A DNA stretch of 64,000 bases, from contig CM059447.1 in assembly GCA_030390025.1 (NCBI GenBank), positions 3,472,001 through 3,536,000 on the forward strand, written 5' to 3'. The notes beneath the pieces are model-generated. The model had not been told where the DNA came from. It ran no database searches and saw nothing but the letters and a program-made list of their open reading frames with translations. This DNA is from Squalus acanthias (Eukaryota). The position numbers were made by a program, and so were the translations under genes. This document shows, in pieces, positions 35,684 through 48,281 of the stretch (its first letter is position 1; each line of letters starts with the position of its first letter).

Positions 35684-35693
35684 CCCCCCTTTT
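35684..35693 (-). promoter_or_regulatory. Polypurine tract
   Basis: AAAAGGGGGG followed by AAT and then the TG of the 3' LTR; very like the MLV PPT (AAAAAGGGGGG-AA-TG). Confidence 0.9.
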
Positions 35694-36060
35694 GACCTAT
35701 TGGACAACTGTTCCAATACAGGTCAACATGTATTCCTATTGCCTGGTGTCTGCCTGAGCGTGCACTCTCTGGCCTTCTACCAGTCTAGGTTATACATGGG
35801 TATGACATAAACCAATTTATAAGCCGGTTTCACCCCACGCGGTATATGTGGACTTATTATTTTCTTGTCTTGGTTCTATGTTGCCATCCCCGGGGCCCAA
35901 GAGCCCTGCATCAATGGTTTGGGCTTCTGGTTCGAGCTTCTGGTTCGAGCTCGTCCTCCATTCCCTCGGTGGGTGCGTGACGTGTCCTTTCGAGACTGTC
36001 ATCACTCACCAATCCTGTTTCTGCCACTCCCGTCTTACGGTTGGCCGGCCTGGTTATTAA

Positions 36061-36558
36061 TTACCATGTCCAATTCATCCCTTGTAATTTTAGGGCTATA
36101 GATCGGGTCTTACACCATCATGGCTTTACCTAATCTTTGAGCAGCAAGAATACACAGTATATTGTAATAACAATCACGAGGAATATCATTATGCTTTGCA
36201 CCACTGAGGCGCCCAACGTCCCCGACCATCCTGACCCCCAATCACCAAAATATCATTTCCGGTGTTATATAGGCCATATATAAGCAGATACTTGATTATC
36301 TTCCTTTTTGTCAGCCGTCCCTTCTTCCGTCGTTCTTCTAATTTGTCCTGTGGAAATACAAGGCTGGTCGTCACCAGCAGTTAGTTATTCCATTCTTACT
36401 ACTTTGCCAGTCTCCCAGATCTATTGAAACATACAGACCACGAAGAATGTTACTATCATAATGCAACAGGATCATATTAACGCGAATACAAGGATGTCCT
36501 GTCCCTTTGGACCCTATGCAAATAATCCTTGCTTTCCTTGTACAATATGATTTCTGGG
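36061..36558 (-). pseudogene. env: Internally deleted, stop-disrupted env relic
   Basis: Read in the pol frame: ILVFALI*SCCIMIVTFFVVCMFQ* (36495-36421), then *YFGDWGSGWSGTLGASVVQSIMIFLVIVITIYCVFLLLKD* (Trp/Gly-rich segment plus a hydrophobic anchor at 36204-36139). It sits in the env position. No homology search was run. Confidence 0.6.
36347..36386 (-). promoter_or_regulatory. Splice acceptor in the ERV 3' region
   Basis: Branch point AACTAAC (36386-36380), pyrimidine tract CCTTGTATTTCCACAG|G, with the AG at 36349-36348. Confidence 0.6.
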
Positions 36559-39500
36559 TTATTCATCAGCTTCTTTGTATAATTTTAATTGTGTCCAGTG
36601 TTTCCATCTTCCCTTTCCAGTGCCGTGCAGGTCTATGCATGCACAAGTGTCGCTGGTCATTAATACCAAATAGGGTCCTTCCCACCGGGGCCGTAACCCA
36701 GGTTTTATTGGAATTATTCTAGACATTACCTGACTTCCCACCCCAGGTATGACTTTCTTTTGTTCCTCGGTATCCCTCTCCAGATCCTTGATTATCTGCT
36801 GGTCTCTAGCCTCCTGTCTCAGCCCGTGCAGTTCCGCACATAATTGCTTTATGAACCTTCTGATTCTGTCCTTTAAAGGTCCCACATCTTCCCCTCCGGT
36901 CACTACTCCTTCGGGAAGCGCCATTGCCCGTCCCGTCATTAATTCAAAAGGGGTCAGTCCGGTGGTGCTATTTGGTGTGGCCCTCAGTCTCATTAGGATT
37001 GTGGGTAACAGTTCCGCCCATCCCTGCCCCGTCTCCACAATGGCCTTTGTGAGAGATCGTTTTAAGGTCCGATTCATTCGTTCCACCATTCCTGAACTTT
37101 CGGGATGGTAAGGTATATGAAATTTCTGCTTTACGCCCAACAGGGCGCAAGCCTCTTTCATTACCTTTCCGGTAAAGTGTGTTCCATTATCTGAATCTAT
37201 TTGTAATGGGACTCCCCACCGGGGTATTATTTCTTCTGCCAAGATCCGGGCCACTGTACTGGCGGTACAGTTTCGGGTGGCAAAAGCTTCCACCCACCTT
37301 GTGAATTGGTCAATTATTACCAGACAGTAGGTTTTTCCTTTGCTTTTGGTTAATGGTCCTGTAAAGTCTATTTGTAGTTTCTCCCAGGGTCCCTTGGGTC
37401 TTGGCTGTCTACCCCATTTTACCTTTACTGGTTTTCCGGTGTTACATTGCGCACAAATGTGGCAATCCTTACAATACTTCCTTATACTGCTTGATAGTCC
37501 GGGCCACCACCAGCATTGGCCTATGTTATTTATCATTCGGCTGGCCCCTGTATGGGCTTGTCCGTGATACAACCTCATTAGTTCCTGTTGGATACACTCC
37601 GGTGCACAGACCCGTCCCTCCTTCCTCCAGACCTTATCTCTGGATAGCATTACTCCCTTCTTTTCCCAAATGTTCAGCTCAGGTTCTGGTATGCCTTGAT
37701 GTAACTTAACAATATTATACTCAAGGGGTATTAATGGGACTGGGGCTCCCCCTATCGGTGTTACATTGCCACAGGGCGCCTCCGTCATAACCTTGGCGGC
37801 CAGGTCTGCCGCTCTGTTACCTTGTTCTTGTGGAGTTTTTCCTTTGGTGTGCGCTTTAACCTTTATTACTGCTAACTCCGTTGGTCCGCGCGCGGCATTC
37901 ACCAAGGACTTTACTACGTCCAGGTGTTGGATGGGGGCTCCCCCAGAGGTGATGTACCCCCTCCTACTCCATGCGGCCATATAATCATGTACTATTCCGA
38001 AGGCGTAGCGGCTGTCGGTATATACATTAACCCTTTTTCCCATAGCCAGTTTCAGGGCTTCCGTTAAGGCTGTTAGTTCTGCGACCTGGGCAGATTTATC
38101 CCCTGGGAGAGTTCCGGCTTGTAACACCATCCCTTCCCCATTTACCACCGCCCAGCCTGTCCTCGGCTTTCCCTGTACATATTTTCGGGATCCATCTACA
38201 TATAACTCCAAGTCCGCTTCGGCCAAGGGTATTTCTTTTATTTTGTCTAGGTCATTTTCTGGCTCTTCCTCATTCATGCATTGGTGGTCCTCTCCTTCCA
38301 TGATCATCATGGAGGCTGGGTTCTGCCCCATATCCCTGACTATCTGTATTGACTTGTCTTTGGGTAATAGTACCGCCTCCCAGGCTGCTCGTCGAGCATT
38401 TGAGACAGACTTCAGTCGTCCCGTATTAAGTAATTCTACCAGGGTGTGCTGGGTGTGTAGTACAATATCTCCGGTCATTATAATCGGTTCACTGACCCGT
38501 ACTGACCATCTGGCACAGTCTATAGCGGCCACGCAGCGGGGCATACCTGCCACGATGGGGGATCGTCTAGTGGAATAGTAGGCCACCGATCTCATGTTTC
38601 CTCCGTGCTCCTGGGCTACTACGGCGCTATAGTGTCCATCATGATTGTGACAGAATATGTGATAGGGTCTCTCTTGATCAGGTAATCCTAACGCGGGGGC
38701 GGCGGTCAGGGCTTGTTTAAGTTTGGTAAATGCTTCTTCCTGAGTGGATGTCCACCCGATGGGTTCTCCTGCTGCCCTACCCCCCTTTGTTAATTCATAC
38801 AGAGGCGCGGCCATGTGTGAGAAGCCTTCTATAAAGTTCCGGCTAAAGTTAAAGAGACCGAGTACCTGTCGTACTCCTCTCACGTTTATGGGCCTTGGCA
38901 TTTGGCTGATTGCCTCCTTCCTTTCCTCTGGCATAGCCCTTTTTCCCATACTGACCCTATACCCGAGGTATGTGACTTCCAATTTTCCTACCTGGGCTTT
39001 GGCTGGGTTTGCTTTAAAACCCGCCTCCCGTAGGGTTGAAAAGACCTTTACCAGGGCCCCCTTATGTCCCACTTTCGTTTCTGACGCTATTAGGAGGTCA
39101 TCCACGTATTGTAAGAGGGTACTATTTTCACCCTCTAAGTCTAGGTCTTCAAGAGCTCTGGCCATGTGGCGGTGAAAAATGGCTGGACTGTTATGGAATC
39201 CTTGTGGGACCCGTGTCCATGTATACTGTTTGCCGCCTATTGTAAAGGCGAACTTTTCCTGTGATTCCTCATGCAGGGGAATGGACCAGAACCCGTTTGC
39301 GATGTCTAACACGGTGAATATTTTGTGTTCCGGTTTTAAACCGTTAAAGATAGTAGCTGGGCTTGCTACAATTGGATATTCCTTTGGGGTCACTTTATTT
39401 AAGGCTGTGTAATCGATTGTAAGTCGATATGACGCATCAGGTTTCTTTACGGGCCATACTGGAGAGTTAGTGCCGGACACTGTTTCTCGCAGAATTCCCT

Positions 39501-40122
39501 GTTTCACGAGTTCCAATACTATACTCCGTACGGCTGTCTGGGCCTCCACTTTTAGGGGATATTGTTTATGGGGTCGGTGGGTTGGCCCGGGGACTCTGAC
39601 TGGGTTCATCTTAACCAGTCCGCAGTCCTGCTTGTGTTTGGCCCATAGTTCGGGGAATCGGTGGCAAATTGCCCCCCACCCTCCCTTTTCGTCCCATTTG
39701 GGGTCTATTATTTGGATAGCGCTGATGGCACATGCTGTCTTGGATCCCTTTGAGTTATGTCTCCCTTCCTTGTGGTTATCGGGCCATAGCAACTTATCCT
39801 GTTTGGGGTCTATTAAAACTCCCACTTCCCTTAGTATGTCTATACCCAGGATGGTTCCCTCAGTATTCTCACAGATCCAGAAACATGTAGGTATAATGAT
39901 TTTTCCCAATTCTAGTAATACTGTCTCACTTTTCCATGCTTTAATTTTTACTCCCCCTATCCCAGATATAAAAATATTTTCCTTGGTTCGCGGCAAGGGT
40001 ACGTTTGTTAGAGATATTGCTGCCCCGGTGTCTATGAGCATTCTGCACTGTCGGCCCCCTACCAGTGCCTCAATAAACATTCTAGGGTCTCCCTTTACCG
40101 GGTCTCCGAGGGCCGCTACCTT
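36559..40122 (-). CDS. pol: Pro-Pol (protease, RT, tether, RNase H, integrase), in frame with gag after a UGA; first ATG at 40080
   Basis: PR: LIDTGA...ILGIDIL. RT: LDIANGFW, PQGFHNSP, QYVDD. Retroviral RNase H: LYVDGS, AQVAEL, YTDSRY, VKAH, GNRAAD. IN: HHCC zinc finger, LQIDF/IDSDNG/GMVER, WEGPY. Uninterrupted for 1173 aa from the ATG. Confidence 0.97.
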   Translation of the reverse strand, partial: KVAALGDPVKGDPRMFIEALVGGRQCRMLIDTGAAISLTNVPLPRTKENIFISGIGGVKIKAWKSETVLLELGKIIIPTCFWICENTEGTILGIDILREVGVLIDPKQDKLLWPDNHKEGRHNSKGSKTACAISAIQIIDPKWDEKGGWGAICHRFPELWAKHKQDCGLVKMNPVRVPGPTHRPHKQYPLKVEAQTAVRSIVLELVKQGILRETVSGTNSPVWPVKKPDASYRLTIDYTALNKVTPKEYPIVASPATIFNGLKPEHKIFTVLDIANGFWSIPLHEESQEKFAFTIGGKQYTWTRVPQGFHNSPAIFHRHMARALEDLDLEGENSTLLQYVDDLLIASETKVGHKGALVKVFSTLREAGFKANPAKAQVGKLEVTYLGYRVSMGKRAMPEERKEAISQMPRPINVRGVRQVLGLFNFSRNFIEGFSHMAAPLYELTKGGRAAGEPIGWTSTQEEAFTKLKQALTAAPALGLPDQERPYHIFCHNHDGHYSAVVAQEHGGNMRSVAYYSTRRSPIVAGMPRCVAAIDCARWSVRVSEPIIMTGDIVLHTQHTLVELLNTGRLKSVSNARRAAWEAVLLPKDKSIQIVRDMGQNPASMMIMEGEDHQCMNEEEPENDLDKIKEIPLAEADLELYVDGSRKYVQGKPRTGWAVVNGEGMVLQAGTLPGDKSAQVAELTALTEALKLAMGKRVNVYTDSRYAFGIVHDYMAAWSRRGYITSGGAPIQHLDVVKSLVNAARGPTELAVIKVKAHTKGKTPQEQGNRAADLAAKVMTEAPCGNVTPIGGAPVPLIPLEYNIVKLHQGIPEPELNIWEKKGVMLSRDKVWRKEGRVCAPECIQQELMRLYHGQAHTGASRMINNIGQCWWWPGLSSSIRKYCKDCHICAQCNTGKPVKVKWGRQPRPKGPWEKLQIDFTGPLTKSKGKTYCLVIIDQFTRWVEAFATRNCTASTVARILAEEIIPRWGVPLQIDSDNGTHFTGKVMKEACALLGVKQKFHIPYHPESSGMVERMNRTLKRSLTKAIVETGQGWAELLPTILMRLRATPNSTTGLTPFELMTGRAMALPEGVVTGGEDVGPLKDRIRRFIKQLCAELHGLRQEARDQQIIKDLERDTEEQKKVIPGVGSQVMSRIIPIKPGLRPRWEGPYLVLMTSDTCACIDLHGTGKGRWKHWTQLKLYKEADE

Positions 40123-41646
40123 TCAGGCGTTGCCTTTTTTTATCTGTTTGACCAGTTTTTCCATTTTCCTTGTCAGCTCCACTATGTCTTCCTCGTCGGA
40201 GGTGTCTGAGGAATCATCTCTCTTATACTTCCTACTCTTTCTCCTCTTCCTTTCTTCTCTTTCTCTGTCATCCTCCCAGTCTTGCATTCCCTTCCTGATC
40301 AGTTTCGCCATGCTTTCCTCGTTATTCTCTGACCTTCCAATACTTGACCCCGGTTTTCCTCCCTGTCTAGGTCCCTGACCTTCCCTTCCTCCTCCTTTAT
40401 TCCAACATTGTTGTTTCCTATGCCCTGGTTTTCCACAATTATGACAGGAAGCCTTTTGCTGAGATGTCTGATTATCCCCTTTGTTCTGTTGCCTCGGGCA
40501 ATCCCTTTTCATGTGGCCCTCCTGTCCGCAACCGAAGCATGCCGCCACACTTAATGCATCCTCATTGTCGCTATCCGTCCTTAGGGCAGCTATTTTAGGT
40601 TTGGCTTGTTCTTGGACCTGATTATCTACTTCGCACGCCCACTGTATTAAGTCCTCCCAATTATGGTGGACCACTAGCCCCATTTTTATTGCATTCTGGT
40701 GCATTGGACTTAGTCCCTGTTTAAATGTTTGCAGAAAACAAGCGTTGTTTTTGTTTAAGGGGCCTGCGGACCACTTTCGTTTTCCATAATCGATAGCGCT
40801 TTCTCCCTTTTCTTGTGTGATTCCGCTTATAGCTGCCCAATTTACGGGGGCCTGTCCCATTGCTGCTTCCACAGCGGCCTTGAATTGGTCGAACTCAGTG
40901 TTTAATTGTTGGATTGTCTGTCCTGTATTTGTGGCCCACTGGCCATTTCCGTGGTTGCCCTGCACTAATCTCCACTGTTCCTCGGGACATTTAGCTCGTA
41001 CCAATTGATCGATATCTATACTATGTAGGGCATGGTTTATGCGTACTTCGCGCAGTTTGTGCCAGAATGTCTGATTATTCTGGCGGTGTTTTAAGGCTGG
41101 TAATTCATTGAGGAGAATCACCCGATCCTGCAGGCTTAACGGTGTGTAGGTCAACGTTGTGGTGGCCGGCCTGCCCGGTACTGCCGGGACGGCCGGATTC
41201 CCCCCTGCCGCCGGAATTTCCGGAACCGCGGGGATTGCTGGCCTATATTGCAGTGTCACTGGTGCCATCGGAACAGGCTCCGGGGCTGCCGACTGGTGTC
41301 CTGTATATGGGGGAGGACAGCCAGTCGGCCCCCCCTGGGGCAGCTCCGGGTATAACCTTTCCTGGGAGTTACCCGGTTTTGGGTTGGCTGCAGCTGCTGG
41401 ATATGTTTTAAGGGCTCCGCGCTGGAGCATACGTTCCCGATCGTATCGTGCCGCTACGATAATGCACGCTTTCTCCAATTTATTTTTGGTTTGTTTCCTC
41501 CACCAGTCCCTTTGTGTGTCTGGTTTATCGTCCTGGTTCCACCCTGCCTTTCTCATTTTCTCAATTAATTTTTTATTCTTGTCGTAAACATATCGTGTTA
41601 CAGACTCTGGGTCTCCCCAGGGTTCCTTATCCTCTTTGCTAGCCAT
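40123..41646 (-). CDS. gag: Retroviral Gag polyprotein, 507 aa
   Basis: Good Kozak context (ACTATGG). Late domains LYPEL and PPPY. CA N-terminus MA/PVT...YTPLS. MHR-like ITQEKGESAIDYGKR. Two CX2CX4HX4C knuckles (CFGCGQEGHMKRDC, CHNCGKPGHRKQQC). Confidence 0.95.
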   Translation of the reverse strand: MASKEDKEPWGDPESVTRYVYDKNKKLIEKMRKAGWNQDDKPDTQRDWWRKQTKNKLEKACIIVAARYDRERMLQRGALKTYPAAAANPKPGNSQERLYPELPQGGPTGCPPPYTGHQSAAPEPVPMAPVTLQYRPAIPAVPEIPAAGGNPAVPAVPGRPATTTLTYTPLSLQDRVILLNELPALKHRQNNQTFWHKLREVRINHALHSIDIDQLVRAKCPEEQWRLVQGNHGNGQWATNTGQTIQQLNTEFDQFKAAVEAAMGQAPVNWAAISGITQEKGESAIDYGKRKWSAGPLNKNNACFLQTFKQGLSPMHQNAIKMGLVVHHNWEDLIQWACEVDNQVQEQAKPKIAALRTDSDNEDALSVAACFGCGQEGHMKRDCPRQQNKGDNQTSQQKASCHNCGKPGHRKQQCWNKGGGREGQGPRQGGKPGSSIGRSENNEESMAKLIRKGMQDWEDDREREERKRRKSRKYKRDDSSDTSDEEDIVELTRKMEKLVKQIKKGNA

Positions 41647-41673: not shown

Positions 41674-41920
41674 TTTTCGGCCAGAAGGAACTCCCCGTTT
41701 TAACTACTACCTAAGTTTACTTTTCGGCCAGAAGGACTCGCCCTCCACCGTGTTAAAACTCCCCGTTTTAACTACTACTTAAGTTTACTTTTCGGCCAGA
41801 AGGACTCGTCCTCCACCGTGTTAAAACTCCCCGTTTTAACTCCTACTTAAGTTTACTTTTCGGCCAGAAGGACTCGTCCTCCACCGTGTTAAAACTCCCC
41901 GTTTTAACTACTACCTAAGT
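41674..41920 (-). repeat. 68-bp tandem array in the ERV 5' leader (about 3 units plus a 47-bp truncated unit)
   Basis: TTTTCGGCCAGAAGG recurs at 41674, 41721, 41789 and 41857. Confidence 0.92.
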
Positions 41921-42034: not shown

Positions 42035-42043
42035 ACTCACCCG
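42035..42043 (-). promoter_or_regulatory. Major splice donor of the ERV leader
   Basis: CGG|GTGAGT about 45 nt downstream of the PBS, the usual position of a retroviral major donor. Confidence 0.7.
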
Positions 42044-42084: not shown

Positions 42085-42102
42085 ATCCCATCCTCGTCGC
42101 CA
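42085..42102 (-). promoter_or_regulatory. Primer-binding site for tRNA-Ser(GCU)
   Basis: TGGCGACGAGGATGGGAT begins 2 nt after the 5' LTR. It is complementary to the 3' 18 nt (ATCCCATCCTCGTCG-CCA) of vertebrate tRNA-Ser(GCU) as I recall it. Confidence 0.93.
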
Positions 42103-42104
42103 AT

Positions 42105-42562
42105 TGATGTAAGCTCCCAAAGTGCGGACCCAGTGATATACAAGGTCGACGCTACTGAGCTTGTTGGAAGAAAGACTGACCAAGTAATTGAAGTCACAAC
42201 GGTTTATTACAGGCCTGGGGAGAACCTCTCATGTCGCTTACATGAGTACAACTCCACCGAGCTAATGAAAACACACATATTTATATCCAATCAGGTTTAA
42301 AAGTTACACACAATGCTAGGTCTAAAAACACATTACTCGTTTTACAAATATTTCTGTCTTGCCTTATGGGGATCTCGTTATCCGAGGGTGGCTGTAAAAG
42401 TTACATACAATGCTATCTGTAAATCTCGTTGAAGGAGATAGACTCCGAAAGCTTGTAAGGTGTTGTGTGACTTGAAACAAATCTCGTTAAAGGCCTGGCT
42501 TTCTGCAAATGAGTCATGCCCGAATTGCCCTGGTTATATCCAATTTTTAATATCTTACTTCA
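42105..42562 (-). repeat. 5' LTR (U3-R-U5)
   Basis: Minus sense TGAAGT...ACATCA. AP-1 site TGACTCA, three AACGAGAT motifs, ATTGG directly before TATAAATA (42285-42278), AATAAA at 42208-42203. Confidence 0.96.
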
Positions 42563-46677: not shown

Positions 46678-48281
46678 GACTAAAAGCTGACAAATCTCCT
46701 GGACCTGACGGCCTACATCTTGGGGTTCTAAAAGAGGTGGCTGAAGAGATAGTGGATGCATTGGTTTTGATCTTCCAAAATTTCCTAGATTCTGGCGAGG
46801 TCCCAGCGGATTGGAAGGTCGCACATGTAACACCGCTATTCAAGAAAGGAGGGAGAGAGAAAACTGAACTACAGGCCAGTTAGCCTGACCTCAGTCGTCG
46901 GGAAAATGCTGGAATCCATTGTTAAGGAAGTGGTATCAAGTCACTTTGAAAATCATAACCTGATTAGGCAGAGTCAACATGGTTTTATGAAAGGGAAATC
47001 ATGTTTGACAAATTTATTTGAGTTTTTTGAGGGTGTAACTAGCAGGGTAGATAAAGGGGAACCAGTGGATGTAGTATATTTGGATTTCCAAAAGGCATTC
47101 GATAAGGTGCCACATAAAAGATTATTACACAAGATTAGGGCTCATGGGATTGGGGGTAATATAGTAGCATGGCTAGAGGACTGGTTAACGGACAGAAAAC
47201 AGAGAGTAGGGATAAACGGATCTTTTTCAGGTTGGCAGGCTGTAACTAGTGGGGTGCCGCAAGGATCAGTGTTGGGGCCTCAGCTATTTACAATCTATAT
47301 TAATGACCTAGATGAGGGGACTGAGTGTAATGTTTCCAAGTTTGCTGATGATACAAAGCTAGGTGGGACAGTAAGCTCTGAGGAGAGCACAAAGAGTCTG
47401 CAAAGGGATATAGATAGACTCAGTGAGTGGGCAGTAAGGTGGCAGATGGAATATAATGTAGGGAAATGTGAGGTTATTCACTTTGGTAGGAAGAATAGAA
47501 AAACAGAATATTTTTTAAATGGTGAGAAACTTTCAAATGTTGGTGCTCGGAGATTTGGGTGTCCTCGTGCAAGAAACACAGAAAGCTAGCATGCAGGTAC
47601 AGCAAGCAATAAGGAAGGCAAATGGCATGTTGGCCTTTCTTGCAAGGGGGTTGGAGTATAAGAGTAAGGAAGTCTTGCTACAATTGTACAGGGCCTTGGT
47701 GAGACCACACCTGGAGTACTATGCACAGTTCTGATCTCCTTATCTAAGAAAGGATATACTTGCCTTGGAGGCGGTGCAACGAAGGTTCACTAGATTGATT
47801 CCTGGGATGAGAGGGCTGTCCTATGATGAGAGATTGTGTAGAATGGGCCTATACTCTCTGGAGTTTAGAAGAATGAGAGGTGATCTCATTGAAACATACA
47901 AGATTCTGAAGGGGATTGACAGGATAAATGCTGAGAGGTTGTTTCCCCCGGCTGGAGTGTCTAGAACTAGGGGGCATAGTCTCAGGATAAGGGGTCGGCC
48001 ATTTAAGACTGAGATGAGGAGGAATTTCTTCACTCAGAGGGTTGTGAATCTTTGGAATTCTCTCCCCCCATAAGGCTGTGTGTGAATGCTGAGTCTTTGA
48101 GTATATTCAAGGCTGAGATAGATAGATTTTTGGACTCCAGGGGAATCTAGGGATATGGAGATCGGGCGGGAAAGTGGAGTTGAGGTCGATGGTCAGCCAT
48201 GATCTTATTGAATGGCGGAACAGGCTCGAGGGGCCGTATGGCCTACGCCTGCTCTGACTACTTATGTTCTTATGTTATGTT
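46678..48281 (+). mobile_element. 5'-truncated CR1 LINE (ORF2 RT with frameshifts and a stop)
   Basis: KSPGPDG, QHGF, YLDFQKAFDKV, SGVPQGSVLGP, KFADD, TRGHS, FFTQRVVNLWNSLP. Ends in a CTTATGTT repeat. Confidence 0.95.

Follow-up and report, generated by a model that had tools for sequence, protein, structure and literature searches.

The segment that follows pol in a provirus on the minus strand of the DNA stretch analysed here (64,000 nt, hereafter the window; segment at 36061–36558) is, as judged by comparison with relatives in the same genome, an internally deleted env of gamma type, a patchwork produced by deletions. It combines a broken small open reading frame (ORF) with a predicted splice acceptor for env and with what remains of env itself, about 60 of 444 codons. 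We hold it quite probable that this patchwork belongs to a lineage spreading by germ-line intracellular retrotransposition, and that the small ORF was an accessory gene of its ancestor. To go by its sequence, the element is a young, many-copy endogenous retrovirus (ERV) with purifying selection on gag and pol. The small membrane ORF is likely an undescribed accessory gene and, as such, the new part of the finding.

The provirus carrying this segment is 7.3 kb long. Its LTRs, assigned by mutual identity and by the 5-bp target-site duplication that flanks the element, lie at 42562–42105 (5′ LTR, 458 nt) and 35680–35223 (3′ LTR) and are identical (458/458 nt). As shown by alignment to one sister LTR, the central U3 is remodelled relative to the env-bearing sisters. 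The following features are also on the minus strand. The primer-binding site (42085–42102) corresponds to tRNA-Ser(GCT), its complement being present in host tRNA-Ser(GCT) genes at 3/3 loci checked. It is followed by a predicted major splice donor GTGAGT (42035–42040), also seen in sister leaders, and by a leader tandem repeat with 3.4 units of 68 nt (41689–41920). This repeat was found in 6/6 leaders of the env-deleted type (3.4–5.4 units) versus 0/9 of the older type. The gag gene (40123–41646) encodes 507 aa with two CCHC knuckles, recognised by eye, and ends with a TGA in frame with pol. The pro-pol frame (36559–40122) is open over 1187 aa, covering protease, reverse transcriptase (RT) with YVDD, tether, RNase H and integrase, up to the pol stop at 36561–36559; it is likely expressed by read-through of the gag stop. 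A polypurine tract lies at 35684–35694. A strong donor-like GTGAGT also occurs 3′ of env (36003–36008).

The genome was searched with the region translated through its stops, read as X. This returned 60 near-identical full matches together with older copies, in which residues 101–142 of the region peptide lie within stop-free frames of up to 487 aa; searched as protein against longer proteins, the X-read region gave no match. For the sister comparison 35 loci were fetched, and 59 other full matches of the env-deleted form were fetched in addition. The env interior is present at 16 places in the genome, both among the fetched loci and in an independent DNA search, which gave the same 16. The initial annotation had proposed an internally deleted env and had looked to sister proviruses with a full env; such sisters thus exist, and their Env aligns to the second hydrophobic segment of the region (window residues 103–141 only, 37/39 identical). 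Sister Env is 444 aa long, open from its own ATG in 4/15 parsed copies, and of gamma type (Pfam TLV_coat, E 1.4e-16). It displays CWVC (the CXXC of SU) at 46, RSKR (furin site) at 250, an ISD judged by eye ahead of CX6CC at 328, and a C-terminal transmembrane (TM) anchor. Its closest named relatives come from sharks and rays, and on this basis the host is likely one of these.

Relative to the sister L053, deletions of 1, 266, 3, 207, 847, 13 and 78 nt occur in the window, and the start codon of env is gone. Four of these deletions fall within env. What is left comprises the first ~10 codons, which lie outside the frame read in the initial annotation (36271–36299), an 18-nt island of the SU region between the 207- and 847-nt deletions (36253–36270), the membrane-proximal segment and TM anchor (36137–36252; env aa 368–406, E 1e-21), and scraps of the cytoplasmic tail with the env stop, around the 13- and 78-nt deletions (36110–36136). 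The surviving TM piece is likely without function; the anchor has been deleted in an older env-less lineage (see below), so that its retention is not required. No env-deleted copy carrying just part of the deletion set was found that would order the deletions or date the env loss on the stem. No conserved 3′ region was found across the ERV families.

Reading the pol frame beyond its stop yields the peptide described initially, which has two hydrophobic stretches, the second of them following a segment rich in Trp and Gly. That it runs on ‘without frameshift’ is misleading, since the common frame is an accident of the seven deletions relative to L053. The eight stops reported were all recovered by position (36516, 36474, 36423, 36387, 36267, 36255, 36132 and 36120), six being TAG or TGA. 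From base composition, 166 codons would be expected to contain 11.7 stops, 61% of them TAG/TGA; the count of eight is thus uninformative, in line with the caveat attached to it. Six of the eight are stop triplets in the sisters too: 36516 in 23/23 with sequence there, 36423 and 36387 each in 25/25, 36267 in 15/15, 36255 and 36132 in 16/16. By this comparison these six fall in spacer, result from reading off frame or terminate a separate ORF. The stop at 36120 was created at a deletion junction, and 36474 is the sole point nonsense mutation, with a non-Trp sense codon there in 23/23 sisters. When stop-creating substitutions are tabulated in this way, none derives from TGG (0/8), and the suggestion that several stops replaced Trp must be abandoned. 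Compared with the commonest letter in env-bearing copies, 36 of the 896 aligned nt of the region are substituted, G>A accounting for 7. An APOBEC-type hypermutated provirus was rejected on these counts (0/8 stops, 7/36 substitutions), as was heavy decay of the region; of the ‘heavy decay next to identical LTRs’ noted earlier, only the identical LTRs stand.

In the sisters, the first hydrophobic stretch is the end of a 48-codon ORF with one predicted TM helix. Its ATG overlaps the last pol codons, it ends at its own stop ~390 nt upstream of the env start, and it is open in 11/13 env-bearing sisters that retain it. In the window, where sister comparison places it at 36421–36566, it is broken by a 1-nt deletion (36502/36501) and by the point stop 36474. 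A second ERV family in the same genome, whose integrase is 54–64% identical, carries a 75-aa ORF 5 nt past the pol stop, open in 34/51 copies examined, these having been chosen by score, which favours open frames. The two ORFs align without gaps from Met1 (12/48 identical). The alignment score was reached by 0/5000 full shuffles and 1/5000 shuffles preserving the hydrophobic layout, other reading frames gave negative scores, and second codon positions were the most alike (32/52 versus 20 and 24). The two families have 19-residue hydropathy values of 3.0 and 2.0. When 1.84 billion proteins were searched with a profile, a single match emerged, P0141 on a Logan contig (E 2e-27), which is 72% identical to the family-2 protein with start, TM and length kept; weak matches of P0141 extend to the ORF of the window family (E 4e-5) and to a third family (E 5e-4). 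Pfam gave no convincing family match for the small ORF, and metagenome and viral contigs held distant relatives only, in which, by eye, the small ORF was not evident. In the ESM Atlas, M2 clusters came near the top for the family-2 ORF (0.85), a lead only: scores stayed <0.9, and recognition fell short of the threshold. Family 2 (L072, L085–L124, L187–L206) is the larger, with at least 150 scored copies of the 75-aa ORF and a gamma-type env of its own; in a third, small family (L073, L074, L106), a stretch resembling the small ORF is broken.

Shared variants of the small ORF within family 2 give a dN/dS of 0.45 (p 0.02), with off-frame controls at 0.55 and 0.67, suggesting modest selection. 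Measured against L053, the small ORF of the window family has a dN/dS of about 1.2 (2 synonymous, S; 11 nonsynonymous, N), and its nonsynonymous rate exceeds that of pol (p 1e-5). It stops at codon 49 versus 75 in family 2, similarity extending slightly beyond codon 49, and its start context is weak; given this truncation and start context, it may already have been decaying before env loss. Translation may proceed by re-initiation at the pol stop or from a second acceptor; in family 2, 12/48 copies lack the acceptor-like AG ahead of the ORF. In the env-less lineages the ORF is frameshifted (the young one) or carries one common stop in 4/10 copies (the older one). At the sequence level, the small ORF likely represents a genuine accessory gene that served the infectious ancestor in the extracellular part of its cycle.

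Small membrane accessory proteins include HIV-1 Vpu and influenza M2, and Vpu is short, has one helix and is encoded just upstream of env. The small ORF has this layout, being short, with a single hydrophobic helix, and placed before env; the likeness is one of layout and not of demonstrated sequence homology. We tentatively raise the possibility, on balance doubtful, that a clade of cartilaginous-fish retroviruses has an undescribed pol-env membrane accessory gene, Vpu- or viroporin-like, acting in release or against a host membrane factor and discarded whenever a lineage gives up env. If this were true, the small ORF would mark a gene of the extracellular phase, and such accessory proteins would not be confined to lentiviruses.

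A branch-point-like motif and one or two predicted env splice acceptors (36348–36387; AG at 36365–36364 and 36349–36348) sit directly after the 266-nt deletion at 36406/36405, and a similar acceptor-like motif lies ahead of env in the second ERV family. Contigs from sequencing runs guessed to be RNA contain the env-deleted form, and some also env-bearing junctions. Those of run X1 branch right after AG 36365–36364, for which splicing and a DNA junction are both possible; this branching was not seen in the other three runs compared. No leader-to-acceptor joint was listed among the contigs.

The deletion-junction pattern gave 61 matches genome-wide and none in a reversed control. The env-deleted form therefore stands at 61 copies versus 16 env-bearing ones, solo LTRs being outside this count. 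LTR pairs are identical in 35 of 43 measurable env-deleted copies (17/60 were not measurable), and a 5-bp duplication accompanies 36/43. The gag-stop-pol arrangement is intact in 16/60 copies and the 1187-aa pol frame open in 31/60. Older copies show ~2% LTR divergence (39/1823 and 17/915; measured in 10/16 and 5/10 copies, respectively). Against L053, dN/dS is 0.30 for gag (p 7e-7) and 0.21 for pol (p 4e-17), the Gag N-terminus (aa 1–80, 0.27) shows no clear relaxation, and the env remnant has 4 S and 5 N substitutions only. All 13 env-deleted rows sampled group together with support 100 and share a long stem, in a tree from which 9 loci too short were left out. The initial annotation had inferred many replication rounds after the death of env. 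The lineage did keep replicating, and stacked deletions, the long stem branch and purifying selection on gag and pol make this reading plausible; Trp-to-stop decay, offered as its evidence, does not support it. A second, older env-less lineage (L057–L060, L063–L068; 10 fetched copies) carries a different deletion that removed the TM anchor and, as its sequence indicates, arose separately. The deletion is ~1196 nt long (env aa 26–424) and common to 9/10 copies, with 1361 nt in one. Among env-bearing copies lacking much of pol, two sets have common breakpoints (L044, L051, L054; L045, L046, L050), which suggests non-autonomous lineages moved in trans.

In the mechanism that we favour, Gag and read-through Gag-Pol would form particles, and reverse transcription primed by tRNA-Ser would be followed by reintegration without leaving the cell. 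Copying inside the cell would make env and the small membrane gene dispensable, and both would then be lost. A different account, in which a single foamy-like env, closed when hypermutation turned Trp codons into stops, has the two hydrophobic stretches as its ends, can draw on their common frame in the window and on the second being truly env. We find it scarcely credible, since the first stretch ends in the sisters at its own stop well before the env start, no stop comes from TGG and Env is of gamma type. Foamy-virus Env has a long leader with an internal signal anchor within the env frame; no such leader is found here, the first stretch belonging in the sisters to an ORF of its own that precedes the env acceptor and start, with no alignment to Env, and the foamy-like signal anchor of the initial annotation is dropped accordingly. 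We also consider it unlikely that the small ORF never functioned as a gene in the window family, being a vestige or an accidental frame between pol and env, and that the env remnant alone would matter. The ORF is indeed short, truncated relative to family 2 and weak in start context, the older copies of the window family hold too few variants in it to show selection, and the family-2 off-frame controls are also <1. Against this stand the similarity at the protein level, gap-free and confined to the reading frame, between families as distant as their integrases indicate, the shared location at the pol stop, and the outside homologue P0141 with its start, TM and length.

Spread of the env-deleted lineage may also have involved reinfection with Env borrowed in trans from env-bearing sisters, instead of copying purely inside cells. 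The four older copies with env open from ATG could supply it, open-env copies without most of pol indicate that trans-complementation probably occurred in the family, and the two mechanisms are able to coexist according to the accessible text of PMC10435555. Nevertheless, the env-bearing copies are older and had no young burst of their own, whereas the env-deleted copies have their own gag and pol under selection; we consider such borrowing rather improbable and retain intracellular retrotransposition as the preferred reading.

An RT tree of 42 rows, which left out most bird and mammal rows and had no foamy or ERV-L outgroup, groups the window family with shark-linked and unnamed elements (clade support 98/93), beside those of teleosts. 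It falls outside the 100/99 gamma-epsilon-type clade, with no supported join with L076, which we take from its length and layout to be Snakehead retrovirus (SnRV). The two RTs are 40% identical. L076 differs in having a 1042-aa env frame directly after pol, with no room for a small ORF between them, and identity of the small ORF with an SnRV ORF between pol and env was rejected on this ground. SnRV-like shark ERVs (CmiERV lineage I, in the accessible text of PMC4422223) are alike in fish or shark host and basal position. Gamma-type Env on SnRV-related class III pol has already been described in anamniotes, cartilaginous fish included, and there too Env carries CX6CC and an ISD-like segment (bioRxiv 10.1101/2021.11.23.469661, available portion). 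Unlike here, that portion gives no accessory genes in epsilon-related elements and has high-copy lineages mostly retaining env; the supplements of the same work may list the window family. In foamy-like teleost ERVs, selected ORFs lie between pol and env (PMC5210030, accessible part); these are ~1.3 kb where sized, and no TM motifs are reported there for the accessory genes, whereas the small ORF is short with a predicted TM. A literature search, as far as the accessible texts extend, found no description of the window ERV family or of a small TM ORF in shark ERVs.

Retrotransposing env-less ERV subfamilies are described for mouse IAP, cat FcERV-gamma6 and bat MLERV1_3 in the accessible text of PMC4643047. 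Like them, the env-deleted lineage forms one clade with common env deletions, outnumbers its env-bearing relatives and has gag and pol under purifying selection. It differs in a host of cartilaginous-fish type, an RT outside the gamma/epsilon clade, a modest copy number (61 vs 16), an accessory-type ORF lost with env and a Gag N-terminus not clearly relaxed. By analogy, the burst fits the known pattern of env-less superspreaders and would be ordinary in itself, env loss followed by a copy burst being well known in mammals. The window provirus does not count as an actively invading ERV (ERVi), which according to the accessible text of PMC10435555 would combine identical LTRs, intact gag-pro-pol-env and insertion polymorphism: its LTRs are identical but its env is deleted. 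Since copies that still have env occur in one genome together with two separate lineages without it and a burst of very recent date, each step of the switch can be traced, including env deletions, the new U3 and the repeat gained in the leader. What specialists would perhaps not anticipate is the small membrane ORF; were it real, a basal retrovirus lineage would have a layout like that of Vpu, and a short protein would be available for testing.

Several minor observations were made on the young copies and their surroundings. The rebuilt U3 of the young lineage occurs in two types that differ in length (about 458 and about 517 nt). Internal deletions in L151, L153 and L172 fuse gag and pol into a stop-free single frame. 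L143, L165, L166 and L182, several of them on contig C383, are apparently tandem or without matching target-site duplication. The tRNA-Ser(GCT) pattern has 241 matches genome-wide, and long tandem arrays matching it, with ~1.6-kb spacing, occur at G000:C26 ~39–42 Mb. Elsewhere in the window, 46831–47589 on the plus strand encodes a non-LTR-type reverse transcriptase fragment (Pfam RVT_1, E 6.5e-33), presumably from a CR1-like LINE.
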